Shown in pieces: positions 1,277-46,485 of a DNA stretch of 64,000 nucleotides (position 1 is the stretch's first letter; the number at the start of each line of letters is the position of its first letter). Both the position numbers and the translations under genes were made by a program. The notes under the pieces are model-generated. The model was given only the letters and a program-made list of their open reading frames with translations, had not been told where the DNA came from and did no database searches. This DNA is from an uncultured Nitrospirales bacterium. GTDB lineage: Bacteria > Hydrogenedentota > Hydrogenedentia > Hydrogenedentales > GCA-2746185. The stretch spans positions 4,576 through 68,575 of the forward strand of contig CAYXRK010000002.1 in the NCBI GenBank assembly GCA_964467615.1, read 5' to 3'.

Positions 1277-1879
1277 GTTACCCTTCTCCTTATTAGATTG
1301 CTTTACGCACCTAACTTAGTTCTCTAGTATGGCGATGATCCCAGTAGCGCGCAAACCGCCTTCAATATCCCATCGCGCGAGGTGTGAAAACCGGCGGAGT
1401 TCCTTCACAAACTCCATCGGTAGAACTGAGAATCAGTCACACCCCCCACAGCTTGTACGCGAACGGCAACCGCGCGCGCTCCCCAAAGTACCCCTTGCAA
1501 CTCGGCATTTCTGCCGGTACTAAACGCGGATTATAGGGTAGTCGGTACATCATGTCAACCCTTTTGTTTGTTTGGACTTCGCGCCTGTCCATTGTCCCCA
1601 ATCGACAACTGCTGCAACCGGAAAGATGCGACGCGGAGCCAATAAGGGGAACTTGGCGACTCTCGCCCTGAACCTTCCGCCAGTTTCGTCGAAGCCCTCG
1701 TCCTCAGCGCAAGTAACAGTCGGTTTGCCTGGAAGTATTGCCAATGACGCGGCGACCTGTTATAAGGAGCCGGGGCGCTGCGCACTATTGCTCAGTCGCC
1801 GGACGAACGGGGAGTCCGTCGTCGAATTAGTGCAACTCCAGTATTTAGAACATGTTATGCATCGAAACGGAGGTGTGTC

Positions 1880-3649
1880 ATGGCAATCGTCGAAAGTAAA
1901 AGCCCCGCAGTCGTGGCGGAATCAGATCCGATCGGACACCAACTTCAAATCGAACATGCGCGCCTCTTGCGAGAAGCTGGTATTGCGGAAGGCCCGGGCC
2001 GTCACTTCAAACGCCCGCGCGAGGCGGAATTCACCCGCGAGGAACGCGAAAACGTGACCATACTGTGCGGCGGGTTCTCGTTACGGCACGATCGGTTTGT
2101 GAAGGCGTCCTGCCAGGGGCTCGGCTACAACGTCGAACTTATCCCCACGCCGGTCAAGGCCGATTTCCAGGCGGGTAAGGAGTTCGGGAACAACGGCCAA
2201 TGCAATCCCACGTATTTTACGGTCGGATCGTTGGTGAATTACCTCATTCGGCTGCGGGAAGAAGGGGGGCTATCGTCGGAGGACGTCATCAAGCGATATT
2301 CGTTCATTACTACCGGCGCCTGCGGGCCCTGCCGATTCGGAATGTATGAAGCCGAGTACCGGCTCGCCTTGCGCAACAGCGGCTTCGATGGATTTCGCGT
2401 CCTCCTCTTCCAATATCAAGGCGGCTTGAACCAAAGCGCGAAGAAGGCCGGCCTTGAGGTCAACCTCGATTTCGCGCTCGCGTTGCTCAACGCCGTGCTC
2501 ATCGGCGATGTACTCAATGAACTCGCATACCAGATTCGGCCCTACGAGACCGTCTCCGGCAAAACGGATGAAGTGTTCGAGAAGGTCACGCAGCGCGTCT
2601 GCGATCACATGCGCGCGCGCGATTGGTCGCAGGTCCGCAAAGGTTGGGCAAGCCGATCGATCGCGAAGTTCGCGTCCGCGATGCTTTCGGAAAAGGAAGT
2701 CGCAGGCGTGATCGAGCAACTCACCGGCGACTACTACCTCAGCGTGCTGCGCGAATGCCGCGAGATGATCGAGCGAGAGATCGAAGTTGACTTCACGCGC
2801 GCCAAACCCATCGCGAAGATCACCGGCGAGTTCTGGGCGCAGACGACCGAGGGAGACGGCAACTTCCACATGTTCCGCTTCATCGAATCGCAAGGCGCGG
2901 AAGTATTGGTCGAGCCGATCATGACGTGGATCGCCTACTTGCTCACGCAAGCGCAAACGAAATTCGCCGACACGAAGGGGCTCGGCGCGGGCGACGATAT
3001 ATTCAGCAAAGTCAAAGCGGAATTCGATTTCAGGAAAAAAGATTTGTTGCTCGGCGCGGTGAAGCGCGTGCTCGTGCGCGAATATGATCGCATCCGCAAC
3101 GCCCTCGGCGGCACGGTGCACGAGCAGGTCTGCCAGATGGAACTGCAACGCATGGCGCATCCCTTTTACAACCGAAAGGGCGCCGGCGGCGAAGGCCACC
3201 TCGAAGTCGCAAAGAATATCTACTACGCGCACAAGGGCCTTGCGCACATGGTGCTGAGCCTCAAACCGTTCGGCTGCATGCCCTCGACGCAATCCGACGG
3301 CGCGCAAGCCGCGGTCGTCTCGCATTACCCGGACATGGTGTACCTGCCCGTCGAGACCTCCGGCGAAGGCGACGTCAACGCGCACAGCCGCGTGCAGATG
3401 GCGCTCGGCGAAGCGAAGTCGAAATGCCGCGAAGAGTTCAAGACCTGCCTTGCGCGGGCCGGTTATTCTCTCGAAGAAATCCGCGAGTTCGTCGGCGCTC
3501 ATCCCAAATTGCGCAATCCAATCCAACACGTGCCCCACCGCGAAGGCGTCACCGGCAAAGCGGCGAGCTTCGTGCTTCACGTCGCCGAGTTGATGACGCG
3601 CGAGGGGTACGTCGCGAACATTCCGGCGGACCAGGCAGCATTCGCGTGA
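1880..3649 (+). CDS. 2-hydroxyacyl-CoA dehydratase-like Fe-S reductase/dehydratase subunit (PlsR-like partner of the downstream activase)
   Basis: GGAGGT RBS; Cys motifs GQCNPTYFTVG, GACGPCRFGMY, LSLKPFGCMPS typical of the HAD/DUF2229-related family; stop overlaps the next start (GTGA). Confidence 0.85.
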   Translation: MAIVESKSPAVVAESDPIGHQLQIEHARLLREAGIAEGPGRHFKRPREAEFTREERENVTILCGGFSLRHDRFVKASCQGLGYNVELIPTPVKADFQAGKEFGNNGQCNPTYFTVGSLVNYLIRLREEGGLSSEDVIKRYSFITTGACGPCRFGMYEAEYRLALRNSGFDGFRVLLFQYQGGLNQSAKKAGLEVNLDFALALLNAVLIGDVLNELAYQIRPYETVSGKTDEVFEKVTQRVCDHMRARDWSQVRKGWASRSIAKFASAMLSEKEVAGVIEQLTGDYYLSVLRECREMIEREIEVDFTRAKPIAKITGEFWAQTTEGDGNFHMFRFIESQGAEVLVEPIMTWIAYLLTQAQTKFADTKGLGAGDDIFSKVKAEFDFRKKDLLLGAVKRVLVREYDRIRNALGGTVHEQVCQMELQRMAHPFYNRKGAGGEGHLEVAKNIYYAHKGLAHMVLSLKPFGCMPSTQSDGAQAAVVSHYPDMVYLPVETSGEGDVNAHSRVQMALGEAKSKCREEFKTCLARAGYSLEEIREFVGAHPKLRNPIQHVPHREGVTGKAASFVLHVAELMTREGYVANIPADQAAFA

Positions 3650-6600
3650 GCGAAGCGACCCTGACCTGTAAAGCCACGCACGGCGAGTGCGATTGCGCGG
3701 ACACGAACACCCGCGCCGCGCTCCCACTCCTTGTCGGCATGGATGTCGGCAGCACGACCGTCAAGGCGGTCGTCGTTGATCCGTCGAGCGACGCGATTCT
3801 CTGGAGCGACTATCAGCGGCACGAGACGAAGCAACCAGAGAAATGTCTCGAATTCCTGGACGTGATCGCCTCGCGTTTTCCCAACGTCGAGCATTCCAAC
3901 TTCCGCGTGTTCATGACGGGCTCAGGAGCTTCGCACATCGCGCGGCGAATCGGCGCGCAGTTCGTGCAGGAAGTGAACGCCGTCTCGCTCGCGGTAGAGA
4001 AGCTCTACCCGGACGTGCAAAGCGTCGTCGAACTCGGCGGCCAAGACGCGAAGATCATCGTGTTCAAGGAAGACGAAACGACCGGCCGCAAGAAAAAAAT
4101 CCCCTCGATGAACGACAAGTGCGCAGGCGGAACGGGTGCGGTCATCGACAAGATCAACGCGAAGCTGCGCATTCCCGCGTCGGAATTGTGCGACATGGGC
4201 TACGACGGAATCCGGCTGCATCCCGTCGCGGGCAAATGCGGCGTCTTCGCGGAGACGGACATCAACGGCCTGCAAAAACAGGGCGTGCCGCCGAAAGAAC
4301 TGATGGCGTCGCTATTCGAATCGATCGTGCTGCAGAACCTCTCGGTCTTGACGCGCGGCCACACGCTGCGCCCGGTCGTGTTGCTGCTCGGCGGGCCGAA
4401 CACGTACATCCGCGGCTTGCAGGAATGTTGGCGGCACAACGTCCCCCCGATTTGGCGCGAGCGCAACGTGCCCGTTCCCGACCGGCCCCTCGAGGAACTC
4501 ATCCGCGTGCCTGAGAACGCCCAATACTTCGCGGCGCTCGGCGCAATCGAGTACGGCAAACAGGAACTCGAGGACGACCCCACCGCCGGACGCTACCAAG
4601 GGCCGGACAACCTTCGCTGGTATCTCGAACAGGGACGCGCCGAGGAAAAGAAAGGCGCGGGCGGTCACGGTCTCGCGCGCGACGAAAACGAGCTCGCCGC
4701 GTTCCGTGAAGCGTACCGGAAAACGCCGTGGTGGCCCAAGGTATTTCGCGCCGGCACGACCGTCGAAGCATTTGTCGGCGTCGACGGCGGATCGACGAGC
4801 ACGAAGGCGGTACTGGTCGATCACGACAAGAACATCATCGCGAAGGCCTATCAACTGTCCAACGGCAATCCCATCGAGGATTGCAAGGAGATGTTTGCGA
4901 AGCTGGAAGCGGAAATCGCCGCGCAAGGCTGCACGCTGCGCGTCCTCGGTGTTGGCACGACCGGCTACGCGAAGGACATTCTCAAGGACGTGATCGGCGC
5001 GGACGTGGCGCTGGTCGAGACCGTCGCCCACACGCAAAGCGGCCTGCACTTCTATCCCGACGCGGACGTCATCTGCGACGTGGGCGGGCAAGACATCAAA
5101 GTCATCGTGCTGAAGAACGGCGCGGTGAAGGACTTCAAGCTCAACACGCAGTGCTCTGCCGGCAACGGCTATTTCCTGCAATCGACCGCGCAGGATTTCA
5201 AAGTGCCGGTCGAACAATACGCCGACGTCGCGTTCAAGGCCGAGGCCATGCCGGAGTTCGGCTACGGCTGCGCCGTGTTCATGCAGACCGACATCGTGGA
5301 CTTCCAGCGCCAAGGCTGGCAGCCGCATGAAATCATGGCCGGACTCGCGGCGGTGTTGCCGAAAAACATCTGGCTCTACGTCTCGCAAATTCCGAACTTG
5401 GCCAAACTGGGATCGACGTTTATCCTCCAAGGCGGCACGCAGCACAACCTCGCGGCGGTGAAGTCGCAGGCGGATTTCATACGCTCGCGCTTCCGCGGAA
5501 CGGGCATCGAGCCGCGCGTCATCGTGCACCAACATTGCGGCGAGTCCGGCGCGATCGGCTGCGCGTTCGAGGCGCACCGGCTCTACCACGACATAGGGCA
5601 TGCTACGACGTTCATCGGACTCGAAGCGGTCAAGAGCATCAGCTATCGCACGACACGCGACGAAAACACGCGCTGCTACTTCTGCAAGAACAATTGCCTA
5701 CGCACGTTCATCGACGTGAAAAGCGTCGCGCGCGCGGATACACCGATTGACGTCGACGCGCGCATCGTCAAGTTCGGCGGCGATACGCAGACCTCGCGCA
5801 TGAAGGCCGCGCCGACCGCCGAACAGAAGAAGTCCGCCGACTTCGAATCGAAAGTGCCGCTCGACGAGGGCGAACAGCGCCTCATCATCGCGACCTGCGA
5901 CAAGGGCACGGTCGAAGACGTCGAGGACATGAAGGGAATCAAGAAGGGCCTCGACGCGATCAAGAAAAAGTTCCCGAACCTCGTTGATGTGGCGTCGAAA
6001 AAAGTATTTCAATCGGTGCAGATCGGGTCTGTCGCCGACGCGCTCCCGGCAACTACAACGTTCATGTTGCCGAAGGCGCGCGCTGCCGTCCGGGCCCGGC
6101 GCTCACTGATGGAACGCCGCGGCGAACTGCGCATCGGCATGCCGCGCGTGCTGAACATGTATTCGCTCGCGCCTTTTTTCATGGCGTACTTCCAGTCCCT
6201 GGGCGTGAAGGACCGCAACCTCGTATGGTCGGACTACACGACCGAAGAGCTGTACAAGGAAGGCGCGAAACGTGGCAGCGTCGATCCGTGCTTTCCGAGC
6301 AAGGTCGGCATTCCGCACGTCCACAACCTTCTCTATCACAAGCACGACCCGGAGAAGGGCAAAGCGCTCGACGTCATCTTCTTCCCGATGATCGATTCGT
6401 TCCCGACGTTCCTCGATGGCGTGCAGGCATCGCGCGCGTGTCCCACGGTGTGCATCACGCCGGAAGCCGTCCACGCGGCATTCATTAAGGAAGGCGACCT
6501 TTTCGCCGAAAAGGGCATCGTCTTCAAGAAGACATTTGTGAACCTCGATAATCACCTGCTTTGCGCGCGGCAAATGTACGAAGACTGGGCGGAAGTTATC

Positions 6601-7287
6601 GGCGTGACCGAGGTCGAGTCGCAGCGCGCCACGCGCGCCGGGCTAGACGCGCTCGCCGTGTACGAGGCGGCGCGCAGGGCCGAGGCGCGGGCCATCATCG
6701 ATCAACTCGAAGCCGAAGATCGCCTGGGCATCGTGCTGCTCTCGCGGCCGTACCACAATGACCCCGGCATCAATCACGAAATCGCGGACGAGTTTCAGAA
6801 ACTCGGCTATCCCGTCATCGCGCAGGACGCGCTGCCGCTGGACGAGGACATGATGGAGCGGCTCTTCGGCGAGGAAGTGCGGGCGGGCGAGATCCGCAGC
6901 GCGTTCGATATCAAGGACGCCTGGAAGAACTCATACTCCGAGAACACCAACCGCAAAGTGTGGGCGGCGAAATTCGTCGCGCGCCACCCGAACCTCGTGG
7001 GCCTCGAGCTGTCCAACTTCAAATGCGGCCACGACGCGCCGATCTACACGGTGGTCGAGGAGATCATCGAGAATTCCGGCACGCCGTTCTTCTACTTCAA
7101 GGACATTGACGAGAACAAACCCACGGGATCAATCAAAATCCGCGTCGAAACCATCGCCTACTTCCTCAAACGCTACCGCGAAGACCTCGTCGCCAAGAAG
7201 AAAAAGCGCGCGCAAATCGATGAGGCGTTGCGCGCATATGAACTCGAACTTCGCGAAGCGGCGCGGGTGGAAATGGCCCCGGCGTAG
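3646..7287 (+). CDS. BadF/BadG/BcrA/BcrD-type CoA-substrate activase: two ASKHA ATPase domains plus DUF2229/HAD-like domain (PlsA/Ger-like)
   Basis: Two ASKHA motifs (GMDVGSTTVK, GVDGGSTSTK); Cys motifs NDKCAGGTG, CGVFAE, NTQCSAGNG, CAVFMQ, CYFCKNNC, PCFPSK, CPTV, FKCGHD. Start reassigned to GTG 3646 (GTGA overlap); the track's first 74 codons overlap the previous gene and read as non-coding. Confidence 0.9.
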   Translation: MSEATLTCKATHGECDCADTNTRAALPLLVGMDVGSTTVKAVVVDPSSDAILWSDYQRHETKQPEKCLEFLDVIASRFPNVEHSNFRVFMTGSGASHIARRIGAQFVQEVNAVSLAVEKLYPDVQSVVELGGQDAKIIVFKEDETTGRKKKIPSMNDKCAGGTGAVIDKINAKLRIPASELCDMGYDGIRLHPVAGKCGVFAETDINGLQKQGVPPKELMASLFESIVLQNLSVLTRGHTLRPVVLLLGGPNTYIRGLQECWRHNVPPIWRERNVPVPDRPLEELIRVPENAQYFAALGAIEYGKQELEDDPTAGRYQGPDNLRWYLEQGRAEEKKGAGGHGLARDENELAAFREAYRKTPWWPKVFRAGTTVEAFVGVDGGSTSTKAVLVDHDKNIIAKAYQLSNGNPIEDCKEMFAKLEAEIAAQGCTLRVLGVGTTGYAKDILKDVIGADVALVETVAHTQSGLHFYPDADVICDVGGQDIKVIVLKNGAVKDFKLNTQCSAGNGYFLQSTAQDFKVPVEQYADVAFKAEAMPEFGYGCAVFMQTDIVDFQRQGWQPHEIMAGLAAVLPKNIWLYVSQIPNLAKLGSTFILQGGTQHNLAAVKSQADFIRSRFRGTGIEPRVIVHQHCGESGAIGCAFEAHRLYHDIGHATTFIGLEAVKSISYRTTRDENTRCYFCKNNCLRTFIDVKSVARADTPIDVDARIVKFGGDTQTSRMKAAPTAEQKKSADFESKVPLDEGEQRLIIATCDKGTVEDVEDMKGIKKGLDAIKKKFPNLVDVASKKVFQSVQIGSVADALPATTTFMLPKARAAVRARRSLMERRGELRIGMPRVLNMYSLAPFFMAYFQSLGVKDRNLVWSDYTTEELYKEGAKRGSVDPCFPSKVGIPHVHNLLYHKHDPEKGKALDVIFFPMIDSFPTFLDGVQASRACPTVCITPEAVHAAFIKEGDLFAEKGIVFKKTFVNLDNHLLCARQMYEDWAEVIGVTEVESQRATRAGLDALAVYEAARRAEARAIIDQLEAEDRLGIVLLSRPYHNDPGINHEIADEFQKLGYPVIAQDALPLDEDMMERLFGEEVRAGEIRSAFDIKDAWKNSYSENTNRKVWAAKFVARHPNLVGLELSNFKCGHDAPIYTVVEEIIENSGTPFFYFKDIDENKPTGSIKIRVETIAYFLKRYREDLVAKKKKRAQIDEALRAYELELREAARVEMAPA

Positions 7288-7375: not shown

Positions 7376-8293
7376 TCACGTCGTCTTGTTATCGACGAGC
7401 GTATTCGATACATCGGTATCGATCTGGAAACCTGAGTTGCCACGCGCGATACAACCTTGTATGAGACTACTTCCGGCATCGATGCCATCGCCGCTATTGT
7501 CAGTGCTGTTACACGACACGATGAGGCACGAACCACTGACAATGATCCCGTCGGAACCGTTGCCGCGCGCCGTGCATCCTCTTATCTGAGATGAGCCATT
7601 GCCGGAAATTCCATTTCCAACGTTGTCGTTCGCAACGCTGTCCTCAATTGTTCCGCCATTGCCGGTACTGATCCCCCCGCCACCGTTAGAACGAGAGTTA
7701 CACTTGGAGATAAGCGCTCCCGAGGCTGCGGCAATTCCCCATGACGCGTTGCCGTTGTCGAATGCAACGCATTCGATGATCTCGCAGCCAACTCCCTCAG
7801 CGAAGATGCCGCCAGTGCCGCCGTTATTTGAAACCATGCAACCAACAACCTTGCTTCCACTCGCAACGTGGATGCCCTCATTCGTATGGCCGCTCGATGT
7901 TATGTTTTCGACTGTTCCAAGCCCGGCTTCAAATCGAATCCCTTGCAAAGTACAGTTCCGGACGCTCCCGTTACGGATTTTTACTCGCTCGGCCTTGACG
8001 AGAACTCCATACTTGGCCACGCCTTTTCCATCAATCTTGAAACCATTCAAGTCCAGCGTGACGTCGGGCGCGGATATCCAGACGCCAACCGATGATGTGT
8101 AGACATTGTCGGGCAAAAAGTACGACCCGGGCTTGGTAATAACGTGCTTCGCCCAGGAATACCCCGGGGTATTCGTGGCATCGACCGGGATACTCTTGGG
8201 ACTTTCCGGGGTCAGCGCGAAGATGGTCGCGGAAGTGAACACAATCGAAGCCAAAACCACTCTAACAACACTGTTAAACTTTGTGCACAACAT
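7376..8293 (-). CDS. Secreted right-handed parallel beta-helix repeat protein
   Basis: Start reassigned to ATG 8293 (GGAGG RBS); signal-peptide-like N-terminus; repeated N(G/S)xxGI...(I/V)xxCxAxxN units. Confidence 0.8.
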   Translation of the reverse strand: MLCTKFNSVVRVVLASIVFTSATIFALTPESPKSIPVDATNTPGYSWAKHVITKPGSYFLPDNVYTSSVGVWISAPDVTLDLNGFKIDGKGVAKYGVLVKAERVKIRNGSVRNCTLQGIRFEAGLGTVENITSSGHTNEGIHVASGSKVVGCMVSNNGGTGGIFAEGVGCEIIECVAFDNGNASWGIAAASGALISKCNSRSNGGGGISTGNGGTIEDSVANDNVGNGISGNGSSQIRGCTARGNGSDGIIVSGSCLIVSCNSTDNSGDGIDAGSSLIQGCIARGNSGFQIDTDVSNTLVDNKTT

Positions 8294-8535
8294 CGCTCGC
8301 CCTCCCATGTTTTGTAAACGCAAAGCGCGTTTTAGCACATTTCGGGGGCGCAAATTTCTTGAGAATCGCCGTTGTTGTCTGATTGTCCTATGGATTTGTG
8401 CCCCGTATTTTCGGACGTTTTCACCCATTGCGGTGAGTGCGCCCCAGTTGATCCGCGCTTTTCCTGAGTTGATTCGGATCCACTTTCGGGTGCGGACCAG
8501 ATAAAATGTAGTTACCGAGTGGGAAGCGCTGAAGA

Positions 8536-14347: not shown

Positions 14348-14851
14348 ATGACAATGGGTATGGGCCAAACATTCGCGCAAGAACTCGAGCACGAAGGCAC
14401 CGTCGCGCGGAAATTGCTCGAGCGAATTCCAGACGGCACGTTCGGCTGGAAGCCGCACGACAAGTCGATGAGCATGGGGAGGTTGGCGTACCACGTCGCG
14501 GAGGTGCCGGGTTGGATTGGGATGATCGTCGGCAAGGACGTGTTCGAGATGACGAGCGGCGAGGGCGGGCCGGGTGAAGCCAAGTCCGGTCCCGAGTTGC
14601 TGAGGTCTTTTGACGAAGGCCTCAAGAGCGCGTTATCGACGCTCAAGGGGGCGTCGGACGATTTACTCAACTCGAAGTGGATGATGAAGGTCAACGGTCA
14701 GGTGACGATCGAGATGCCCAAGGCCGCAGTAATTCGGGCATGGGTCCTGAACCACTTGATTCACCATCGCGGCCAACTATCAGTGTACTTGAGGCTAAAC
14801 AACATCGCCGTACCGGCGATCTACGGCCCCTCGGCGGACGAGCAGGGCTGA
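14348..14851 (+). CDS. DinB family protein
   Basis: GGAGG RBS; WKPHDKSMSMGRLAYH and NHLIHHRGQLSVYLR motifs. Confidence 0.92.
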   Translation: MTMGMGQTFAQELEHEGTVARKLLERIPDGTFGWKPHDKSMSMGRLAYHVAEVPGWIGMIVGKDVFEMTSGEGGPGEAKSGPELLRSFDEGLKSALSTLKGASDDLLNSKWMMKVNGQVTIEMPKAAVIRAWVLNHLIHHRGQLSVYLRLNNIAVPAIYGPSADEQG

Positions 14852-14913
14852 CAACTTCGGACGACGACGAAATATTGGCAGGGTGTGAACCAACTTTTTT
14901 CGGAGTGACGGTC

Positions 14914-16110
14914 ATGATTCGATGGGTGCTATCGGTAGTGGTTCCTGTGGCGGCGTTTGCGGCGGAGGGAGGCCTCGATGGCCGCGTGATCGAAGTCACC
15001 GGCGGGAAGCAAACGAGCGTGGACGCGCCGCTGGTGCTTTCCTACGACGGCCCGGACGTTTCCGGCGCGGTGTCTGTCGAGCAGTCCGACACGGGTAAAC
15101 AGTATCCCGCCGCGGCGCGCGCCAGGGAGTTTGTGTTCGTGCCGGAGGGCACGCTTCCCGGCAAGACCCACCGCTATACGATCAAAGTGAACGCGGCGAA
15201 ACGCTCACCCAACGTTGCGTTGACCAAGCACGAGGGCGAGGACGTGATCGACATAAACCTCGCCGGCGAGTTGTTCACCGCGTACCACTATTCAAACGAC
15301 AACAAGAAACCGTTCCTGTGGCCCGTTAACGCCGAAGGTGGACAAACAATCACCCGCGACTGGCCGATGGGCGAGAAAGACGTCACCGACGACCACAAAC
15401 ACCACGTGTCGCTGTGGACCTCCTACGGCGATGTCAACGGCGTTGATTGTTGGGCCGAGGAGGAAAACTCCGGCTACCAGCATTCAGGCGACGTGCAATT
15501 CGGCTCCGGTGACGCCTACGGATGGATCGCCGCCAAAAATGTTTGGCAAGACAAGGACCACAAACCCGTCGTGACCGAGGAGCGAGAGTATCGGTTCTAT
15601 TCGGGCGAGCCCAGCGCTCGCCTCATGGATGTGGCGGTAACATTCCGTGCCGACTACGGCGACGTTAAGTTCGGCGACACGAAGGAAGGCGGCCTCGTCA
15701 GCGTTCGCATGGCCGACGCGCTCCGCGAACAGACCGGGGGCGGCAAGGTCACGACCTCCGAGGGCGTCACCGGATCGCTCGCAGCGTGGGGAAAACCTGC
15801 CGCATGGTGCGACTACTCCGGAACGCTCGAGGGCCTCGGTGTGCGCGGGATAACCGTGTTCGACAATCCGTCAAATTTACGTTACCCCACCTCGTGGCAC
15901 GTTCGGAACTACGGGCTAATGGGCGCGAATTGTTTCGGGTATTCCCACTTCACGAACGGAAAACAGAACGGGGACTACCTTCTCGAAAACGGAAAGTCCG
16001 TCACGTTCCGATACCGCGTTTTCGTTCACTCGGGCGACACGACCGAAGCGAAAGTATCGGATCGATTCGCGGACTACGCCACGCCGCCTTCCGCGCGATG
16101 GGTCGAGTGA
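14914..16110 (+). CDS. Secreted 'PmoA family'/DUF6807-like protein of unknown function
   Basis: Start reassigned to ATG 14914 (GGAG RBS, signal peptide); KPFLWP, DHKHH, KEGGLVSVRM, WCDYSG, WHVRNYGL motifs. Confidence 0.8.
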   Translation: MIRWVLSVVVPVAAFAAEGGLDGRVIEVTGGKQTSVDAPLVLSYDGPDVSGAVSVEQSDTGKQYPAAARAREFVFVPEGTLPGKTHRYTIKVNAAKRSPNVALTKHEGEDVIDINLAGELFTAYHYSNDNKKPFLWPVNAEGGQTITRDWPMGEKDVTDDHKHHVSLWTSYGDVNGVDCWAEEENSGYQHSGDVQFGSGDAYGWIAAKNVWQDKDHKPVVTEEREYRFYSGEPSARLMDVAVTFRADYGDVKFGDTKEGGLVSVRMADALREQTGGGKVTTSEGVTGSLAAWGKPAAWCDYSGTLEGLGVRGITVFDNPSNLRYPTSWHVRNYGLMGANCFGYSHFTNGKQNGDYLLENGKSVTFRYRVFVHSGDTTEAKVSDRFADYATPPSARWVE

Positions 16111-16143
16111 CGACCGCAAGCCACGAGACACGCGAAAATGGAA

Positions 16144-16172
16144 GCGGCCCCGAGCCAGATGGCCGGGACCGC
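16144..16172 (-). terminator. Probable terminator of the cold-shock gene
   Basis: GC-rich imperfect hairpin (gcggtcccgg...ggggccgc on the minus strand) followed by TTCCATTTT, 21 nt after the csp stop. Confidence 0.45.
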
Positions 16173-16193
16173 AGGTCTAACGTATGATCGAAA

Positions 16194-16397
16194 TTACAGA
16201 GGGCGAACGTTTGTCGCCTCGGGACCTTTGCGCCCCGTGCCGGGTTCGTACTCCACGCGTTGTCCGTCCTTCAGCGATCGAAACCCTTGGGATTGGATGC
16301 TGCTGTGGTGGACGAATAGGTCGCGCCCGCCGTCATCCGGCGAAATGAACCCGTATCCTTTTTGATCGTTAAACCACTTGACTACACCAGTTGCCAT
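16194..16397 (-). CDS. Cold-shock protein (CspA family)
   Basis: [12 protein letters not shown] (RNP1) and LFVHHS (RNP2); 67 aa. Confidence 0.97.
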
Positions 16398-16579
16398 CTT
16401 GACTTCTCCCTAACCCGCTCTCGCAGGCCGTTGCATTGCCCTGTATTCAAAAACATGGAACCTGCCTGCTCAGGGCCGCAAGGCCGTCCCGCGCTACATA
16501 GTAAAGCAGAAAAATGCGCAGTAGTCAACAAACTTGCGGAATCCTCGTAAGACGCTCTACCGGGGCAATATCCGGCCAA

Positions 16580-18079
16580 TCACAACACCCGGCCCAACGC
16601 CTTTCCCGAGATTTCCCGGTGGGTATGGCCTGATTTCGCAAGACCTTGCACAAATTGACCGCGTTTCTCGTCGGAATCGAACTCGAATCCCATCAGCGCC
16701 CGCCCCACCTGTTCCCCTGAAAAAGCGTAGTTGAAGTAGCACAGGCTGGCTTGGCCCTGGACGCCGGCCAGGAAGTCGTGCAGCGCGCCGGCCCGCTCTG
16801 GAAACTCGAACTTGAAAAAGTAGGGCCGCGAAAACAGGTGCGGCTCGTAGTGAATGATGCGAAACTCGACGTCCTCCTCGGAGGTAACTTCCTCGTGCGG
16901 GATGCCCAACTCTTGCAGGCGTTGGTCGAACAGCCGCAGTTCGAGGGGCGACGCCTCGAACCCGATGACGGGCCACGCACGATCGGGATGTACCTTGCCG
17001 TACTGGAACTCGACGATGTTGAGCCCTGAAAGCGCCGTCTCAAGCAAAGCGAGCATGCTGCCGCTGCGTTCACTGATCTCGAACCGGAAATATTTGCGCC
17101 GTCCCCCGCCGATTCCGGCGTGCCGCGCGACCCAGGCCAACTGCGCGAAGTCGATGTTCGCGCCGGCCAAGATGCAGAGCGCGCGCATGCCGCGAATGGA
17201 GTCGCACTGCTTGAGCAACCCAGCGAGGCCCATAGCGCCCGAGGGTTCGGGAATGCAACGGCGCGATTCCCATACGTGTTGAATCGCGGCGCAGACTTCT
17301 TCGTTGGTGACGGTGATGAATTCGTCGAACAACGAAGCGCAGAGCGGGTACGTCAGATCGCCTGCCTGCTTGACCGCGGTGCCGTCGCAGAACACGTCGA
17401 CGTGATCCAGGCGCACGGGCCCGCCCGCCTTTATCGCCGCGCCCATGCTGGCTTGTTCGACCCCTTCCACGCCTACAATTCGAATGCTCGGATAGTACGA
17501 CTTTAGCCAACAGGCGGCGGCCGCGCCCATTCCGCCGCCGCCGATCTGGAGATACACGATGTCGAAGGGCCCATGACCCGACATCACGATCTCATCCGCG
17601 AGCGTGCCCTGGCCCCCCATTGTCAACAGGTCATCGTAGGGGTGAATATAGATAGTGCCCGACTTGGCGACGTCCTCTTTCGCCAGCGCCGCCGCCGCGT
17701 CGAAATTATCGCCGTGCATGAAGACTTCGACGCGGTGGCCGCCGTGATGGCGCACTGCGACTTGCTTCGTCTTCGGGGCGGACTCGGGCATATAGATGCG
17801 CGCGTTGATGCCAAGTTTTTGCGCTGCCAGAGCGACGCCCTGCGCGTGGTTTCCCGCCGACGCCGCGACCACCCCCCGCTCGCGTTCCTCCGGGGTCAGC
17901 ACGGCCATCCGGTTGTAGGCCCCGCGCCATTTGTAGGAGTGAATGGGCGAGAGGTCCTCGCGCTTGAGGTACACTTCGGCTTCGACCGGCAGGCTGATGC
18001 GCTCGAGCGGCGTGGGCTGCGCAATGGCGTAGACCCGTTGGCGCGCCATTAGGATTTCGTGGAAGAGCCGCTCGCGCAT
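16580..18079 (-). CDS. ilvA: Threonine ammonia-lyase, biosynthetic
   Basis: KREDL..SYKWRGA PLP lysine motif, ASAGNHAQG, two C-terminal ACT-like regulatory domains ([19 protein letters not shown]). Confidence 0.95.
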
Positions 18080-19623: not shown

Positions 19624-19890
19624 AGTTGGTCTTCCTCCGCCAGAACGCGGTACGGGTTGAGTTGGATATCGAACCCACTATAGACGCCAATTTCGCCCGC
19701 GGTAAAGCGGCGCCCGGTGCAACGCGGCAGGATCCATCCATGCATAGCAGTCGGCGCACTTTCCGTCTACTCGATGTCGGGCAGCGCTCGCCGCCGGGCC
19801 GGAATGACCTCTGCGGATGAGATGTTACCTGCACGTATCGTAGAATGTGACTTCCCCGCCGGTAATAACACGAAACGAGTCTGCCCTTCC

Positions 19891-21240
19891 ATGTCGCTGT
19901 TCTCGCGCAAATCATCAGGCGACGGCCCCACCGAGGCGCAAGTCCTCGACTCGATGCGTCACATCATTGACCCGGACCTCGGCAAGGATATCGTCAGCCT
20001 CGGTTTCATCAAGGCCCTGAAAATCGACGGCGGCGACGTGTCGTTTACCGTCGAACTCACGACGCCCGCCTGCCCGGTCAAGGAACAGTTTCGCACGGAC
20101 TGCGAGAAGGCGGTGAAGAAACTTCCAGGAGTGAAGTCCGTCCACGTCGAAATGAGCGCGATGGAACGACAGAAACGTCCCGGCAGCGATATCAACACGC
20201 TCACGCGAGTTGATTCGGTGATTGCGGTATCGTCATGCAAGGGTGGCGTTGGCAAGTCGACCATCGCGGCGCAACTCGCCCGGCAGCTTCAGCGCGAGGG
20301 CCTGCGCGTCGGCCTGCTCGACACGGACATCTACGGGCCTAGCATCCCTACGCTGTTCAACCTTCATCGCCCGCAACTTATGATGCGCGAGAACATGCTC
20401 ATTCCAGCGGTGGCGGACGGCCTCAAACTGATGTCGCTGGGCTTCGTGATGGGCGACTCGCCCGCGGTCATGCGCGGCCCGATGGTTTCGGGGTACGTGC
20501 AACAAATCCTGCACCAAACGGACTGGGGCGACCTCGACTACCTAATTGTCGACATGCCTCCGGGCACCGGCGATATCCAACTCACACTGGTGCAACAGGC
20601 CGCGCTCGATGGGGCGATCATTGTCACGACGCCGCACTCGTTGTCGCTCGTTGACGTCTCTCGCGGGATACTCATGTTCGAGAAGGTCAACGTACCGGTG
20701 CTGGGCATCGTCGAGAACATGTCTTATTTCCTGTGTCCCAAGTGCGAAGACAAGCATTACATTTTCGGTCGGCCCGGAAAGGCGTTAAAGGACCGATTTG
20801 GTTTGAATACGTTGGCCGAATTTCCGATCGTCGATGGTATCTCGAGCCTGGAAGGCCGCAACGCCGGGGCCAATCTCGCGCCCGTGCGGGAACTCGCTGA
20901 CAATCTCCACCGCGCGGTTGGCAAGAGCCGGGTGGCCAAGTCTGCGTTGCCGATTGTGACGGCGAAACCGGGCGTCATCCACGTGAAATGGCCCGACGGG
21001 ACGCAGTCCTCGCTCCCCGCCCGCGACGTTCGGACGTCATGCCAATGCGCCCAATGCGTACACGAGTTTACCGGCGAACAAATTCTCGACCCGTCGCGCA
21101 TCTCGCCGGACATTCAGGCGAAGGCCATCGAGCCGCTCGGGAACTACGCGGTGTCTATCGTCTGGAACGACGGGCACTCGTCTGGGATATTCACCTGGGA
21201 CCACTTGAAGGAAGTCGCGGGCGCCGTTGCCGCCGTCTGA
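19891..21240 (+). CDS. Mrp/ApbC/NBP35 Fe-S cluster carrier with N-terminal DUF59 and C-terminal DUF971 (HCF101-like architecture)
   Basis: IIDPDLGKDIV and TTPACP (DUF59); SCKGGVGKS deviant Walker A; DMPPGTGD; CPKC; C-terminal CQCAQC and GNYAVSIVWNDGHSSGIF. Start moved to ATG 19891. Confidence 0.92.
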   Translation: MSLFSRKSSGDGPTEAQVLDSMRHIIDPDLGKDIVSLGFIKALKIDGGDVSFTVELTTPACPVKEQFRTDCEKAVKKLPGVKSVHVEMSAMERQKRPGSDINTLTRVDSVIAVSSCKGGVGKSTIAAQLARQLQREGLRVGLLDTDIYGPSIPTLFNLHRPQLMMRENMLIPAVADGLKLMSLGFVMGDSPAVMRGPMVSGYVQQILHQTDWGDLDYLIVDMPPGTGDIQLTLVQQAALDGAIIVTTPHSLSLVDVSRGILMFEKVNVPVLGIVENMSYFLCPKCEDKHYIFGRPGKALKDRFGLNTLAEFPIVDGISSLEGRNAGANLAPVRELADNLHRAVGKSRVAKSALPIVTAKPGVIHVKWPDGTQSSLPARDVRTSCQCAQCVHEFTGEQILDPSRISPDIQAKAIEPLGNYAVSIVWNDGHSSGIFTWDHLKEVAGAVAAV

Positions 21241-34246: not shown

Positions 34247-35644
34247 CTACGCGGTGGCGGCCGGGAAGGACTCGGCCGGCTCGGTGTGTTTCGGCGTAAC
34301 GTGCGCTAGCCGCTCACGGGCGATCATCTTCATGCCGTACTTCGGGCGCAAGCTGAGTAACGGTTCGAGGGCGACGCGATGTCCCGGTTCGTGTTCCAAT
34401 CGCCAGCGCTGCGCAATGATAGCGAGCGCCATCGTCCCCTCCATCCGGGCGAAATGCTCGCCGATACACCCGCGCGGTCCCGCGCCGAAGGGCAGGTAGG
34501 CGAATTTTGGCCGCGCCGCTTCTTGCTCCGGCGTAAACCGATCGGGATCGAAGCGCTCGGGATCGTCCCAATACTTCGGATTGCGATGCATGACGTACGG
34601 ACTGAACACGACGGCCGTCCCTTTATGCGCCGTGTACTCCCGTAGCGGATAGTCCTCTAGCGCTTCCCGCGCGAGGATATAGATCGGCGGATACATGCGA
34701 AGGGACTCCGCGAAAACTCGGCGCGTGTAGTCCAAATTCATCACGTCCAGGGCGCGTGGGGAATTACCCTTCAGCACATGATCGATCTCGTGATACATCC
34801 TGTCTGCCGCCTCGGGGTTCTGCGAGAGTAAGTACCATGTCCACGTGAGCGACAGAGCCGTGGTTTCGTGGCCCCCGACGAAAAGCGTGATGACTTCGTC
34901 GAGCACCTGCTGATCGGTCATGTACGCGCCTGTGTCCTCATTTTGGGCGGCCAGGATAGTCGAAAGGAGATCGCCTCGGTCGTGGCCGTCCGCGCGGCGC
35001 TCGTCGATCATGCGGCGAACGGTCTCGTCGAGCCTGCGTTTGGCCTTTCGGAACGCGATGTTGCTGGGCAGCGGCAACTTCTCAAGGAATTCAGCCATGG
35101 GGTTCGCGCTACGCTCGAACAGTTTCATCGCGACGGTCAGGCACTCGCCGAGTTCGAGCGCTTCCCCATCGACGTCGCTGTGGAACAACGTTTTCGTCGC
35201 GATCCCCAGGCTGAGCTTCGTCATCTCCTGATAGATGTCGTAGGTTTGATCGGCCCGCCAACTATCGCGGCAGCGGATCGTGTCATCGATCATCACGCGC
35301 GCGTAGGCTTCGATGCGGTCGCGGCGGAAGGAAGGCTGCATCATTTTTTGTTGATCGCGGTGGAATTCGCCCTCGCTCGTGATAAGCCCGTTGCCCAGCA
35401 GCCGTTTCATCAGGCGCAATGCGCGGCTCTTGATGAACTTGCGATGGTCCGTGACCGTGACATCTCTGATAAGGTCTGGGTCGTTGATGAGAATGAGCGG
35501 CCGGCCGGCCATGTTGATATACGCGATATCGCCGTACTCGCGCGTCGTGTTCATCAACAGCCCGATCAAGTCATTCTTGAACGCAAACACCTGGCCCAGT
35601 GGATGCCAGGACTTCGGCCCTGGAGGGTACGCGAGCGTACTCAT
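34247..35644 (-). CDS. Cytochrome P450
   Basis: GGHETT I-helix, ESLR (ExxR), PERF, FGAGPRGCIG heme motif; start reassigned to ATG 35644 (AGGAGG RBS, ATGA overlap). Confidence 0.97.
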   Translation of the reverse strand: MSTLAYPPGPKSWHPLGQVFAFKNDLIGLLMNTTREYGDIAYINMAGRPLILINDPDLIRDVTVTDHRKFIKSRALRLMKRLLGNGLITSEGEFHRDQQKMMQPSFRRDRIEAYARVMIDDTIRCRDSWRADQTYDIYQEMTKLSLGIATKTLFHSDVDGEALELGECLTVAMKLFERSANPMAEFLEKLPLPSNIAFRKAKRRLDETVRRMIDERRADGHDRGDLLSTILAAQNEDTGAYMTDQQVLDEVITLFVGGHETTALSLTWTWYLLSQNPEAADRMYHEIDHVLKGNSPRALDVMNLDYTRRVFAESLRMYPPIYILAREALEDYPLREYTAHKGTAVVFSPYVMHRNPKYWDDPERFDPDRFTPEQEAARPKFAYLPFGAGPRGCIGEHFARMEGTMALAIIAQRWRLEHEPGHRVALEPLLSLRPKYGMKMIARERLAHVTPKHTEPAESFPAATA

Positions 35645-37602
35645 GAAGCAATTCCTCCTGCTTGCGGCGTGTTTTCGGCAAGGCACGCGACCGCGGCCGG
35701 CCCCCCAAGTATCGCCCGGGCCACCGACGCCAAGCTCACTCCCGCCGTAGACACGGACTCCCCAATGCCCGGAATTTTCCATGTCGCGTATTCGCCGTCG
35801 CGCCAAGTCACGAAACGATAACGCGGGTCGTCGAGCGGATGTTCGAATGAAAACACGACCGAGGTAGGCGCACCCTCGAGGGTTTCGAGTACGCGTGCCT
35901 CAATCCCGTTCCAAGAAACCGCGTCGCCAGAACTCATCGGGGCGGTGTCAGCGCGCCGAAATATATGCGACCACGGCCGGCGCAAAAATCCATCTTCCTG
36001 CTGGAGCAACAGTTCGTTCGCTGATGTCCTCTGTACGATGACTGGCATACGCGCTGCGGAGAGCCACGCCCACGCAAAGTCCCCAGGCGCGCCCTGCGCG
36101 GCGCGCGCCAGCGGGAAACTCGCGCCCAGCAGATCAAGCGGCGTGTTCACTGCGACGACTAGTTCGGTATCGCGATTCGCAAACTGTGCGACGCTGTTGT
36201 TGCTGTTCTGAAACCCGCGATCCATCACGGCAATAGCGACTGACATCCCAACGAGAAACAGCGGCGCGATGATCGCGTGCGCCCCAAGCCACACGCCCGC
36301 AAGCACCCGCGCTCGGACCGGTGACTCGCGGCGCGCGCGCGCCCAACGATCAAGAAACAAGCCAACGACGCCGAGCGCGCCAAGACTCGCGAACATGAGG
36401 TTGCGATCCTGAGGAATCGTGGCGCACATCGGGAGCGCCGCCAACAACGAACCCGTCAACAGGAAGCGGGCCTCGCGCGACTGGCTAAGCAATGGCCGAA
36501 GCACCAACAACATCCAAATTGCGAACGCGGCGCCAATCGCCGAAAACAATGCTTGCCACACGCCCGGTAACGCGGCCCAAACAATCGAGTCGGGCGCGGC
36601 GAACAGCCCCACGAGCAACGCCGGATAGCGTCCCAGCGCCTCCTTGATGAAGTACAAGGGCTCCGCGAGCGGATCGATATACAGCCAAGAGCCCCACGTG
36701 CCGTGACCGGCGGCGATATAGATCGCGCGCCATACGGCCGTCGCCGCGAGATAGGGGGCGAGACTTATCGCAGCGCGGGCGACCCGCCCGATCGGCTTAC
36801 GCGACGCCGCGCTCTCGTCAATAAAAAAAGCGTAGGCGGCTAGATAGGCGAGCGCGCCGATTGCGGCTTCACCAAAAAACAATGACACGAGGAACAGCGC
36901 GAGGGCCAGCGCCCGCCACGCCACCGACTTACTGAATTCAACGCCCGTGCGGCACGATCTATCGTGGGCGAGCAATGCTCCGATTCCAAACAGCGCTGTG
37001 TAGAGCGCGTGCCGGTTCGCAATCCATCCCGCGGCGACACCGTGGCCGCCGTCTATTGCAAACAGGAGGGCGGCGATGACCGCTGCCCGGCCCGCGCCGA
37101 TAGTCCGCCGAAACCACACGGCAGCAAGCGCCGCGAGCGCGCCGTAGAGTAGCCAACTGTGAACGTGGAACGGGAACGCCTGTTCCCCGAATAGTTGGTA
37201 GTCGATCCATAGCGACAGCGACGTCAGCGGGCGCCACATGTCGACTCGCCAACCCTCGACGGCCCACCACGGGAGCACTCCGGACTTGAGAAGCGCCTGA
37301 TTGCCGCTGGCCTGGCCATCAGCGAAGGTGTACGTATTCAATAGTTTACTATTGAATCCTTGAGCATCGTTGGCCTTGAAGATAGAGAGGAAATACCAAT
37401 CGTCTTGCGCGAATCCGATGAACAAGGCCGGCGAAGTCAGGAGAAGCCCAACCACAAACGCGAACAACGCGGGACGGCGACTGATCGCACCGATGAACGC
37501 GGACACGCTGAGCGGCGACGGCACGGCCACTCCGGCCTCAATACCGTCTAGACCTGCACCGCGCGCGAAGCTTCGGCTGTTTTCCACGATGGATTTCGAC
37601 AT
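35641..37602 (-). CDS. Polytopic membrane protein with a TMTC/GT-C-like N-terminal region (no TPRs)
   Basis: QDDWY, WRPLTSLSLWIDYQLFG..FH motifs parallel to the 24408 protein; ~12 TM segments. Start uncertain (37602 vs 37674). Confidence 0.75.
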   Translation of the reverse strand: MSKSIVENSRSFARGAGLDGIEAGVAVPSPLSVSAFIGAISRRPALFAFVVGLLLTSPALFIGFAQDDWYFLSIFKANDAQGFNSKLLNTYTFADGQASGNQALLKSGVLPWWAVEGWRVDMWRPLTSLSLWIDYQLFGEQAFPFHVHSWLLYGALAALAAVWFRRTIGAGRAAVIAALLFAIDGGHGVAAGWIANRHALYTALFGIGALLAHDRSCRTGVEFSKSVAWRALALALFLVSLFFGEAAIGALAYLAAYAFFIDESAASRKPIGRVARAAISLAPYLAATAVWRAIYIAAGHGTWGSWLYIDPLAEPLYFIKEALGRYPALLVGLFAAPDSIVWAALPGVWQALFSAIGAAFAIWMLLVLRPLLSQSREARFLLTGSLLAALPMCATIPQDRNLMFASLGALGVVGLFLDRWARARRESPVRARVLAGVWLGAHAIIAPLFLVGMSVAIAVMDRGFQNSNNSVAQFANRDTELVVAVNTPLDLLGASFPLARAAQGAPGDFAWAWLSAARMPVIVQRTSANELLLQQEDGFLRRPWSHIFRRADTAPMSSGDAVSWNGIEARVLETLEGAPTSVVFSFEHPLDDPRYRFVTWRDGEYATWKIPGIGESVSTAGVSLASVARAILGGPAAVACLAENTPQAGGIAS

Positions 37603-37819
37603 GAGTACGTAGAGCGGGGAGGTCCCGTTTCCCGGCAATTGCGGGTCCGCGAACGAACATGGAAATGCGGACACTACACCCTCGGCGGCGGTGCTCCCGT
37701 CAACGCTGCCTCTCTGCGTAAGTCCAATGATTTCAATATGTTAGCAAAAGTGCAACACTCCGAAATTGGGCCGCACCTCGCGTACAACACCAGTCGGATC
37801 GAAAAGTGTTACGGCTTCG

Positions 37820-44732: not shown

Positions 44733-44823
44733 TTTTCTCCCAGCGGCGGTGGATTGCCCGCGCACAGTTCGCTACGATAACTCGCTTGTATAGCTTTTCG
44801 TCCAACCGTGAGGCGCAGTTGCC

Positions 44824-46332: not shown

Positions 46333-46485
46333 CGCGGCGTCCCGGGCATTGACGCAGTCACTACGGCGGAATAAGCTAGGAGCGAACATGACGCCCTGAC
46401 ACCGATGCGCTTTCCCCCGCCCCCGATTCTTCTAACGCGCCGACGCCAAACGCCGGCCGATCTGTTACGCCAGGGCCCCTCGTGG

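Follow-up and report, generated by a model that had tools for sequence, protein, structure and literature searches.

The two genes at positions 1880 to 7287 of the window, i.e., the whole 64-kb stretch of DNA analyzed here, probably encode an ATP-dependent, low-potential Fe-S lipid ester reductase of the PlsA/PlsR-Ger type. Sequence comparison assigns the pair to a deep branch of this family, here named clade II. Because the pair falls into a separate deep clade for which no characterized member was found in the literature, ether-lipid synthesis by clade II is a reasonable inference rather than an established function.

Gene structure and domains

Gene 1 (1880..3649, forward strand; ATG at 1880, TGA at 3649) is an ORF of 589 amino acids for the PlsR-like second reductase subunit (R, or Red2), and a Shine-Dalgarno-like GGAGG (1869..1873, forward strand) can be read from the sequence 6 nt 5' of its ATG. 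Gene 2 (3646..7287, forward strand; 1213 aa) encodes the PlsA-like subunit (A) in the order Act1-Act2-Cys linker-Red1; its GTG start at 3646 is supported by the alignment with a relative from Hydrogenedentota, L006, which begins at residue 3. Both ORFs are intact and are joined, as the earlier note had read from the sequence, by a GTGA overlap (3646..3649, forward strand) of the gene 2 start codon with the gene 1 stop codon, implying translational coupling. Both are also full length as compared to their relatives, with an R family median of 601 aa, which rules out a degraded or truncated gene 1. Upstream, an intergenic region of about 600 bp (1277..1879) lies between gene 1 and a divergent minus-strand gene with its ATG at 1276 and presumably contains the operon promoter, none being identified there with confidence. 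The region 1-1880, non-coding according to the ORF list, was found to carry this minus-strand gene, which runs off the window. Rfam and tRNA scans of the 64-kb window returned no matches, and an exact-sequence look-up of gene 1 gave no record.

Pfam recognized two BcrAD_BadFG domains (PF01869; E 4e-69) and DUF2229 (PF09989; E 5e-45) in gene 2, in accordance with the two ASKHA activase domains and the second reductase-type domain noted earlier. Act1 (3727..4680, forward strand; about aa 28-345, with approximate boundaries, Pfam reporting two stretches) is matched over aa 23-237 by the NCBIfam model bzdQ, and Act2 (4774..5559, forward strand; Pfam aa 377-638) matched MbdQ (E 1e-21) and HgdC (E 1e-20) among PDB sequences. 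The same type of search also detected a relationship between the DCCP-R activase and the activase domains of gene 2 (E 3e-11). In HgdC-type activators, two Cys hold a bridging [4Fe-4S] cluster, and the cluster-type residues Cys159 and Cys198 of Act1 as well as Cys503 and Cys542 of Act2 were universal in the comparison. The Cys linker (5674..5898, forward strand) carries four Cys in a universal motif, C677-x2-C680-x3-C684 ... C751, which may constitute an additional Fe-S or Zn site, together with a clade II-specific insertion (aa 694-742). The reductase domain Red1 (6130..7215, forward strand) corresponds to DUF2229 (PF09989), which Pfam places at aa 829-1062 and which is taken here to reach about aa 1190, and contains the likewise universal Cys882, Cys932 and Cys1127.

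The assignment of gene 1 followed another route. No Pfam or NCBIfam model matched even at E<=10, PF06050 (HGD-D) among the Pfam models included, no match to PDB sequences was obtained, and profile searches with Red1 and with the family of gene 1 retrieved only chance matches from the PDB. However, gene 1 aligned with aa 987-1402 of a fused Listeria PlsA-type protein (21% identity, E 3e-19) as well as with Fusobacterium and Subdoligranulum PlsR-type ORFs, its structural model resembled the HadB/C, BzdNO and DCCP folds (Foldseek E 3e-4 to 1e-2, TM 0.3-0.43), and its Cys108, Cys151 and Cys466 are kept in all PlsR-type proteins compared. The Fe-S dehydratase/reductase-type domain that the earlier note had ascribed to gene 1 is thus supported by the Listeria PlsR-like homology, by the HAD/BCR/DCCP fold and by the three universal Cys, but not by Pfam or NCBIfam. 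Cys148, the partner of Cys151 in a CxxC, is found only in clade II, and the segments 126-133, 255-285 and 577-589 are missing from every classical PlsR compared; Cys148 and the insertions could reflect a different cluster chemistry. Comparison of the R family with Red1 by hhalign was not significant (E 0.18), with the first two Cys aligning in register, and the sequences therefore do not demonstrate that the two reductase domains are paralogs.

Relationship to known PlsA/PlsR and Ger enzymes

Homology of the gene pair to the PlsA/PlsR-Ger class runs end to end: besides the alignment of gene 1 described above, gene 2 aligns with residues 1-996 of the fused Listeria protein. The A subunit shows the tandem BcrAD_BadFG domains followed by DUF2229, and the PlsR-type domain is found in the adjoining, coupled gene 1, but upstream instead of downstream. 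All 14 Cys common to the compared PlsA/PlsR-type proteins (two per activase domain, four in the linker, three in Red1 and three in Red2) are present in the window pair and, without exception, in the clade members compared (57/57 for A, 62/62 for R) as well as in five outgroup proteins. The assignment to PlsA/PlsR-Ger made in the earlier note holds as regards end-to-end homology and shared Cys, but the pair lies outside the classical PlsA/PlsR group compared, in a separate deep clade. In the identity matrix, clade II shares about 31% (A) and 19-24% (R) with classical proteins from Fusobacterium, Subdoligranulum, Listeria and Collinsella, which are proxies from mislabelled chromosomes in PLSDB and stand in for classical PlsA/PlsR such as the characterized enzymes of C. 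perfringens, E. faecalis, L. cremoris and B. longum. This low identity speaks against an ether-lipid role, whereas the Listeria homology, the 14 Cys and the full-length ORFs speak for it.

Inside clade II, identity amounts to 46-72% (A) and 39-61% (R) over many phyla, and the clade is carried by at least 567 species-representative genomes; fused forms of the family turned up in a search of 1.84-billion representative sequences. The reductase gene comes first in 80/80 related genome loci, and the reversed order is therefore real but a fixed trait of the clade and no peculiarity of this genome; a local rearrangement or assembly artefact is ruled out. A relative in Brevibacillus laterosporus has the order A-then-R.

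With C. perfringens plasmalogen synthase, consisting of PlsA (CPE1195, 1004 aa) and PlsR (CPE1194, 420 aa), the window pair has in common the Act1-Act2-Red1 plus Red2 composition, the self-contained two-gene module and all shared Cys. By contrast, the two genes stand in inverted order, R exceeds PlsR by about 170 aa and has the additional Cys of the CxxC, A exceeds PlsA by about 200 aa, with additions in the linker and at the N and C termini, and clade II carriers are mostly found outside Bacillota. The genes are separate here, whereas fused PlsA is known in Enterococcus, Lactococcus, Bifidobacterium and Listeria. Ger (T. maritima Tmari_0479/AGL49404; D. alkenivorans SHJ90043) shares with gene 2 the BBD core (2 x PF01869 + PF09989), which is kept in all alkyl-ether producers. 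However, Ger is one fused polypeptide of about 159 kDa, in whose C-terminal part weak PF06050 and PF09989 fragments were reported, in contrast to the separate, upstream R without Pfam match found here, and its size, by which rather than by sequence this was judged, suggests that Ger resembles the classical clade and not clade II.

The closest published parallel is Acid_0921/Acid_0922 (UniProt Q02AJ6/Q02AJ5) of the Acidobacteriota member Solibacter usitatus Ellin6076, with 589 and 1188 aa as compared to 589 and 1213 aa in the window organism, which is probably a member of Hydrogenedentota. By locus number the pair has the same R-then-A order, and it lies at the same distance from C. perfringens PlsR and PlsA (20.9% and 30.2% identity, 96% coverage; PMC10087280). 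Our sequence comparison used related MAG loci instead of the Ellin6076 sequences: Bryobacterales and Solibacter MAG loci share 53-57% (R) and 63-66% (A) identity with the window pair. S. usitatus produces iso-C15 mono- and diethers and brGDGTs, lacks ElbD and forms ethers at 21% O2, and the saturated alkyl ethers that are the Ger-type product are those found in this organism. Its pair was put forward in 2022 for the ester-to-ether step in brGDGT synthesis (Halamka et al. 2022, PMC10087280 Table S5), a hypothesis for which no experimental test was found in the literature, and 'Ger homologues' were reported for Planctomycetota, Myxococcota and other phyla (PMC11868695). The ether-lipid idea, which the earlier note did not know for this lineage, had thus already been raised for this clade. 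The parallels to S. usitatus are in line with an ether-lipid role of the window pair.

The O2-independent route assumed earlier is doubtful for clade II, since many carriers belong to lineages regarded as aerobic and S. usitatus makes its ethers at 21% O2. Bryobacterales and Gemmatimonadaceae, for instance, are generally held to be aerobic. Most characterized enzymes of the PlsA/PlsR-Ger type function only anaerobically, and together with the many carriers held to be aerobic this counts against the ether-lipid reading.

Proposed reaction and alternative substrates

Based on these comparisons, we propose the following for the types of cluster, the assembly of the subunits, the substrate and the product. 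Act1 and Act2, each of which keeps the two HgdC-type cluster Cys, would form an intramolecular pseudo-dimer, in which ATP hydrolysis would push an electron, possibly via the four-Cys linker site, into a catalytic module. This module would be a heterodimer-like arrangement of the DUF2229 domain Red1 from gene 2 and Red2 from gene 1; like the subunits of 2-hydroxyacyl-CoA dehydratases, each of the two has three conserved Cys. As the substrate, an acyl ester at sn-1 (possibly also at sn-2) of a membrane glycerophospholipid is most likely. Reduced and dehydrated, it would yield a vinyl ether and then, probably, a saturated alkyl ether, although the alkyl and vinyl products cannot be told apart by sequence. 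The outcome would be ether lipids formed without O2-dependent chemistry in an organism that is probably a member of Hydrogenedentota.

A lipid role, which we consider probable, is supported by the gene neighborhood in part of the related loci. A homolog of the tetraether synthase Tes (Tes/GDGT-MAS; E 7e-112 to PDB 7tol) adjoins the pair in seven of the 80 loci, in three phyla and at least four independent arrangements, with a rough binomial P of about 1e-4 to 2e-2. No Tes homolog and no other lipid-related genes were found in the 64-kb window, a point against the ether-lipid reading. Across the related loci, there were no universally conserved neighbors beyond the pair itself, which, like plsA-plsR, is a self-contained two-gene module, a feature also favoring that reading. 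An apparent third conserved neighbor family turned out to consist of antisense ORFs.

The same ATP-driven Fe-S machinery might instead act on a substrate other than glycerolipids, for example a CoA ester, a different carbonyl compound or some small molecule, clade II then being a functionally distinct paralog family. We regard this as possible, if rather unlikely. It would fit the depth at which clade II is separated from classical PlsA/PlsR, the clade-specific CxxC in R and the extra segments, and the high conservation (50-72% identity) over many phyla including lineages regarded as aerobic suggests a distinct and strongly constrained role. Moreover, most loci, like the window, lack lipid-synthesis neighbors, Bacillota genomes contain several PlsA-like homologs of unknown role, and the close Ger paralog Ger2 of D. 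alkenivorans, called highly similar to Ger by its authors, did not give ether lipids when expressed; homology by itself can thus be misleading, and the inactivity of Ger2 weighs against the ether-lipid reading as well. Contrarily, all characterized DUF2229-type enzymes found in the literature act on glycerolipid esters, Tes homologs adjoin the pair in several phyla, S. usitatus has the pair and makes ethers without ElbD, and the pair has no acyl-CoA-metabolism context nearby, unlike the HAD and BCR systems with their CoA-ester gene context.

The HadBC/HgdAB plus HgdC, BzdNO/MbdON plus PQ and DCCP/DCCP-R systems follow the same ATP-driven 'archerase' logic as the window pair and have in common with it the HgdC-type activase domains (E ~1e-21) as well as the catalytic subunit fold. 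No sequence likeness to HgdAB, HadBC or BcrBC was found in the PDB by single-sequence or profile search, the resemblance being at the level of the fold, and neither type of search matched the DCCP catalytic chains (6eno, 7yyl) to the pair. At the sequence level, the pair does not group with HgdC/BcrAD-type or DCCP proteins, the outcome against which the earlier note had set its proposal, since it is far closer to PlsA/PlsR and HAD, BCR and DCCP were undetected by sequence. The fact that PlsR-type proteins are detectable in this way and HAD/BCR/DCCP are not is a further point for the ether-lipid reading. A DCCP-like double-cubane system reducing small unsaturated molecules (acetylene, azide, hydrazine-type), the alternative named in the earlier note, is very improbable. 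In its favor, the gene 1 model matched DCCP in Foldseek (7yyl_B, E 4e-3; 6eno, E 6e-3) about as well as it matched HAD subunits, four Cys of gene 1 are invariant, its C293 is a Cys in 39/62 family members and the DCCP-R activase is detectably related to those of gene 2. Against it, neither gene 1 nor Red1 has a sequence-level DCCP match even in profile searches at E<=10, the wider family conserves only three Cys in each reductase domain as compared to the six ligands of the DCCP double cubane, and the tandem activase fused to DUF2229 with a separate R is the PlsA/PlsR architecture, whereas DCCP is accompanied by a separate, single-domain DCCP-R.

Implications for ether-lipid producers

Bacterial ether and tetraether lipids (brGDGTs) are the basis of widely used palaeotemperature and pH proxies, and to our knowledge the ether-bond enzyme of the main soil and lake brGDGT producers has not been established. 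Tentatively, the glycerolipid ester reductase favored here might be extended to the whole of clade II, with its long R containing the CxxC and its R-then-A order, as the missing ester-to-ether enzyme of brGDGT and alkyl-ether synthesis outside Bacillota, in producers among Acidobacteriota, Planctomycetota, Hydrogenedentota, Gemmatimonadota, Ignavibacteria and others, many of them oxygen-exposed. The clade-specific features might then confer oxygen tolerance or activity on both sn-1 and sn-2. If this is true, the gene pair would be a genomic marker for environmental producers of brGDGTs and ether lipids. Confirmed activity would provide a practical marker gene set and add Hydrogenedentota to the ether-lipid producers, whereas a refutation would mean that many published 'Ger homologue' counts need revision.

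Since Pfam has no model that matches the R subunit, screens based on domains can overlook it. The 'BBD-only' Ger matches of a sponge-symbiont preprint, which concluded that the PlsR part was absent, may be a case of such a missed R subunit, should those matches belong to clade II. The S. usitatus candidate pair is now placed in a clade that is large, strongly conserved and spread over many taxa, with a fixed reductase-first order.

Organization and domain content of the gene pair

Gene 1, coding for the PlsR-like second reductase subunit R of 589 aa, extends on the forward strand from its ATG at 1880 to the TGA ending at 3649 and is preceded by GGAGG (1869-1873), 6 nt 5' of the start codon. 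Gene 2 (3646-7287, forward strand) codes for the PlsA-like subunit A of 1213 aa and starts with a GTG at 3646 overlapping the TGA of gene 1, which confirms the GTGA junction (3646-3649) described in the earlier note. Two observations favour this start: it is coupled to the stop codon of gene 1, and the alignment with the closest Hydrogenedentota relative begins at residue 3. Position 3424, listed as an ORF start, only marks where the earliest in-frame ATG occurs. Upstream lies a minus-strand gene (2-1276, start at 1276) which continues beyond the window's left end, has a signal-peptide-like N-terminus and is without a Pfam match, with about 600 bp of intergenic DNA between it and the divergently oriented gene 1, and downstream of gene 2 follows a convergent beta-helix gene (7376-8428); therefore, the unit consists of exactly two genes. 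A perfect sigma-70 consensus, TTGACA-17-TATAAT, is present on the minus strand at 1530-1558, some 250 nt 5' of the start codon of this minus-strand gene. The DNA probably stems from a Hydrogenedentota lineage: the gene 1 product shows 100% identity to a partial protein of a Hydrogenedentota MAG, and among 80 related genome loci the highest identities were found to two Hydrogenedentota loci, L006 and L019, for gene 2 and to L019 for gene 1.

Pfam analysis recognized two BcrAD_BadFG activase domains (Act1 and Act2) and a DUF2229 reductase domain (Red1) in gene 2, as had been claimed from the sequence. The Fe-S reductase-type domain likewise claimed for gene 1 holds at the level of fold, whereas domain databases show no match: no Pfam or NCBIfam model was detected even at E ≤ 10, and neither the single sequence nor an 18-sequence profile matched a PDB sequence. 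The fold assignment is based on Foldseek comparison of an AlphaFold2 model (mean pLDDT 72.8), for which each of the top 13 matches, including HadB/C (3o3m), BzdNO (8s02) and MbdON, was a catalytic subunit from the HAD/BCR/DCCP superfamily, with E-values of 3e-4 to 9e-2 and low TM-scores of 0.25-0.43.

A branch distinct from classical PlsA/PlsR

Orthologs of plsA/plsR are present in Listeria and active anaerobically (PMC9702350). A tblastn search of PLSDB, which includes some mislabelled chromosomes, identified a single homolog in Listeria monocytogenes, a fused protein of 1475 aa, to which gene 2 aligned over residues 1-996 (identity 32% for the activase part and 27% for Red1) and gene 1 over residues 987-1402 (21% identity, E 3e-19). 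Other classical forms recovered were A followed by R in Fusobacterium (993 and 404 aa) and Subdoligranulum (973 and 458 aa), and a fused protein of 1479 aa with a TetR gene downstream in Collinsella. Brevibacillus laterosporus also encodes A before R (1168 and 545 aa), and these proteins are 46% (A) and 38% (R) identical to those of the window (tblastn). In joint alignments, the classical proteins share 38-52% (A) and 28-49% (R) identity across phyla, and a second group, made up of the window pair, Brevibacillus and 60-odd relatives, shares 46-72% (A) and 39-61% (R), whereas identity between the two groups is about 31% (A) and 19-24% (R). The latter group, here termed clade II, is furthermore distinguished by insertions of 31 residues in R (aa 255-285) and 49 residues in the A linker (aa 694-742) and by additions at the N- and C-termini.

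Three cysteines per reductase domain is the pattern of 2-hydroxyacyl-CoA dehydratases. Universal in both clades are C882, C932 and C1127 in Red1 and C108, C151 and C466 in R, as well as C159 and C198 in Act1 and C503 and C542 in Act2. Additionally, C677, C680, C684 and C751 form a CxxCxxxC...C motif between Act2 and DUF2229 (gene 2 aa 677-751, window 5674-5898), from which none of the compared PlsA-type proteins in either clade deviates; no description of it was found in the literature surveyed. In R, C148 forms a CxxC with C151 and is invariant in clade II (62/62 and Brevibacillus), whereas classical proteins carry Gly or Ile at this position; this fourth cysteine may alter ligation of the R cluster.

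Distribution, gene order and neighbouring genes

At E ≤ 1e-3, gene 1 is related to over 8000 database proteins, with identities of about 56-64% for the best 120 listed; in a 50%-identity library, 1762 representatives matched at E ≤ 1e-3, 278 of them even at E ≤ 1e-30. When one genome per species was scanned, at least 567 proved to carry the pair; among the best 80 are Phycisphaerae and other Planctomycetota, Hydrogenedentota, Gemmatimonadaceae, many Bryobacterales and Terriglobia, Ignavibacteria, Latescibacterota, Marinimicrobia, Zixibacteria, Dadabacteria, Spirochaetia and Gammaproteobacteria. R precedes A on the same strand in 80/80 loci, and single-chain fusions occur in the representative library with the R part N-terminal (P0139, 1623 aa) or C-terminal (P0169, 1579 aa). 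Thus, the reductase gene does come first, but the reversed order noticed earlier is no local peculiarity: it is an old, fixed trait of clade II. The two genes abut or almost so in 40 of 64 measurable loci, while the gap exceeds 300 bp in 15, several with unrelated inserted genes.

No other gene family was common to most of the 80 loci. Seven loci contain a radical-SAM protein matching the archaeal tetraether synthase (Tes) GDGT-MAS (E 7e-112 to PDB 7tol): L007 (14518-16650), L009 (about 14803-16881), L011 (14002-16143), L015 (8450-10687), L026, L060 and L073. Its gene directly follows the pair in the four loci from Planctomycetota; in those from Bryobacterales, Acidobacteria subdivision 13 and Latescibacterota it is at most 8 kb away. 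If the Planctomycetota loci are taken together as a single event, the independent arrangements number four, with P of about 1e-4 to 2e-2 under rough assumptions. Ignavibacteria loci carry, just upstream of the pair, a flavin amine oxidase gene together with two genes for squalene/phytoene synthases, an arrangement resembling hpnC/D/E (L023 1132-4500; also L036, L053, L067, L071, L079 and L081), and eight Bryobacterales loci carry a gene for an LMF1-family membrane protein.

Putative function and remaining features of the window

The window pair matches Acid_0921 and Acid_0922 of S. usitatus in sizes, order and distances to PlsR/PlsA. Acid_0921 (589 aa; 20.9% identity and 96% coverage to PlsR) and Acid_0922 (1188 aa; 30.2% identity to PlsA) were proposed to turn esters into ethers ahead of Tes in the synthesis of brGDGTs (Halamka et al., PMC10087280), and S. 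usitatus, which lacks ElbD, forms brGDGTs as well as iso-C15 mono- and diethers at 1-21% O2 (PMC10087280). According to a later paper that cites Chen et al. (2025), S. usitatus, in which Tes co-occurs with a Ger (glycerol ester reductase) homolog, synthesizes brGDGTs, whereas K. versatilis, with Tes only, forms tetraesters. Our literature search found no mention of Acid_0921 or Acid_0922 by name and no experimental test of clade II. Published counts of Ger homologues cover several phyla, among them Planctomycetota, Myxococcota and Marinisomatota (PMC11868695). In the field, Ger and PlsA are regarded as indistinguishable by sequence.

We consider it moderately probable that the window pair is an ATP-driven Fe-S lipid ester reductase, for which, by analogy to the S. 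usitatus lipids, saturated alkyl ethers would be the likelier product. Weighing against this reading, the close Ger paralog Ger2 of D. alkenivorans was inactive, and the 64-kb window contains no Tes homolog and no lipid genes. The main rival, that the same machinery acts on another substrate, is less probable. A DCCP-like role is very unlikely, although double-cubane proteins (DCCP, 7yyl and 6eno) are among the Foldseek matches of gene 1, and the activase parts of gene 2 match, besides MbdQ, HgdC and HadI, more weakly also DCCP-R in the PDB. With the window pair, a clade proposed earlier for the ester-to-ether role gains a Hydrogenedentota member; new here are the delineation of clade II, its reductase subunit without a Pfam match, the fixed gene order, the clade-specific cysteine and the Tes linkage. 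A sponge-symbiont preprint reported matches to the core of two activase domains and DUF2229 only and inferred absence of the second reductase domain; these matches may belong to clade II, since its second reductase is a separate upstream gene without a Pfam match, and in that case this subunit would escape domain screens.

Elsewhere in the window, at a distance of 12 kb from the operon, a forward-strand gene (19717-21240) codes for an Fe-S cluster carrier ATPase of the Mrp/NUBPL type that has FeS_assembly_P and GBBH-like N domains. Two adjacent large ORFs on the minus strand (35641-37674 and 37820-40102; 677 and 760 aa) are without a Pfam family. A 514-aa ORF (44808-46352, forward strand) without a Pfam match has a third-position GC of 0.44 as compared to about 0.7-0.8 in its neighbours and is either foreign DNA or no real gene. 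Finally, a single minus-strand ORF of 5318 aa (47975-63931) contains at least 38 Ig-like repeats of the Big_12 family (PF19078) and probably encodes a giant surface or adhesin-type protein.
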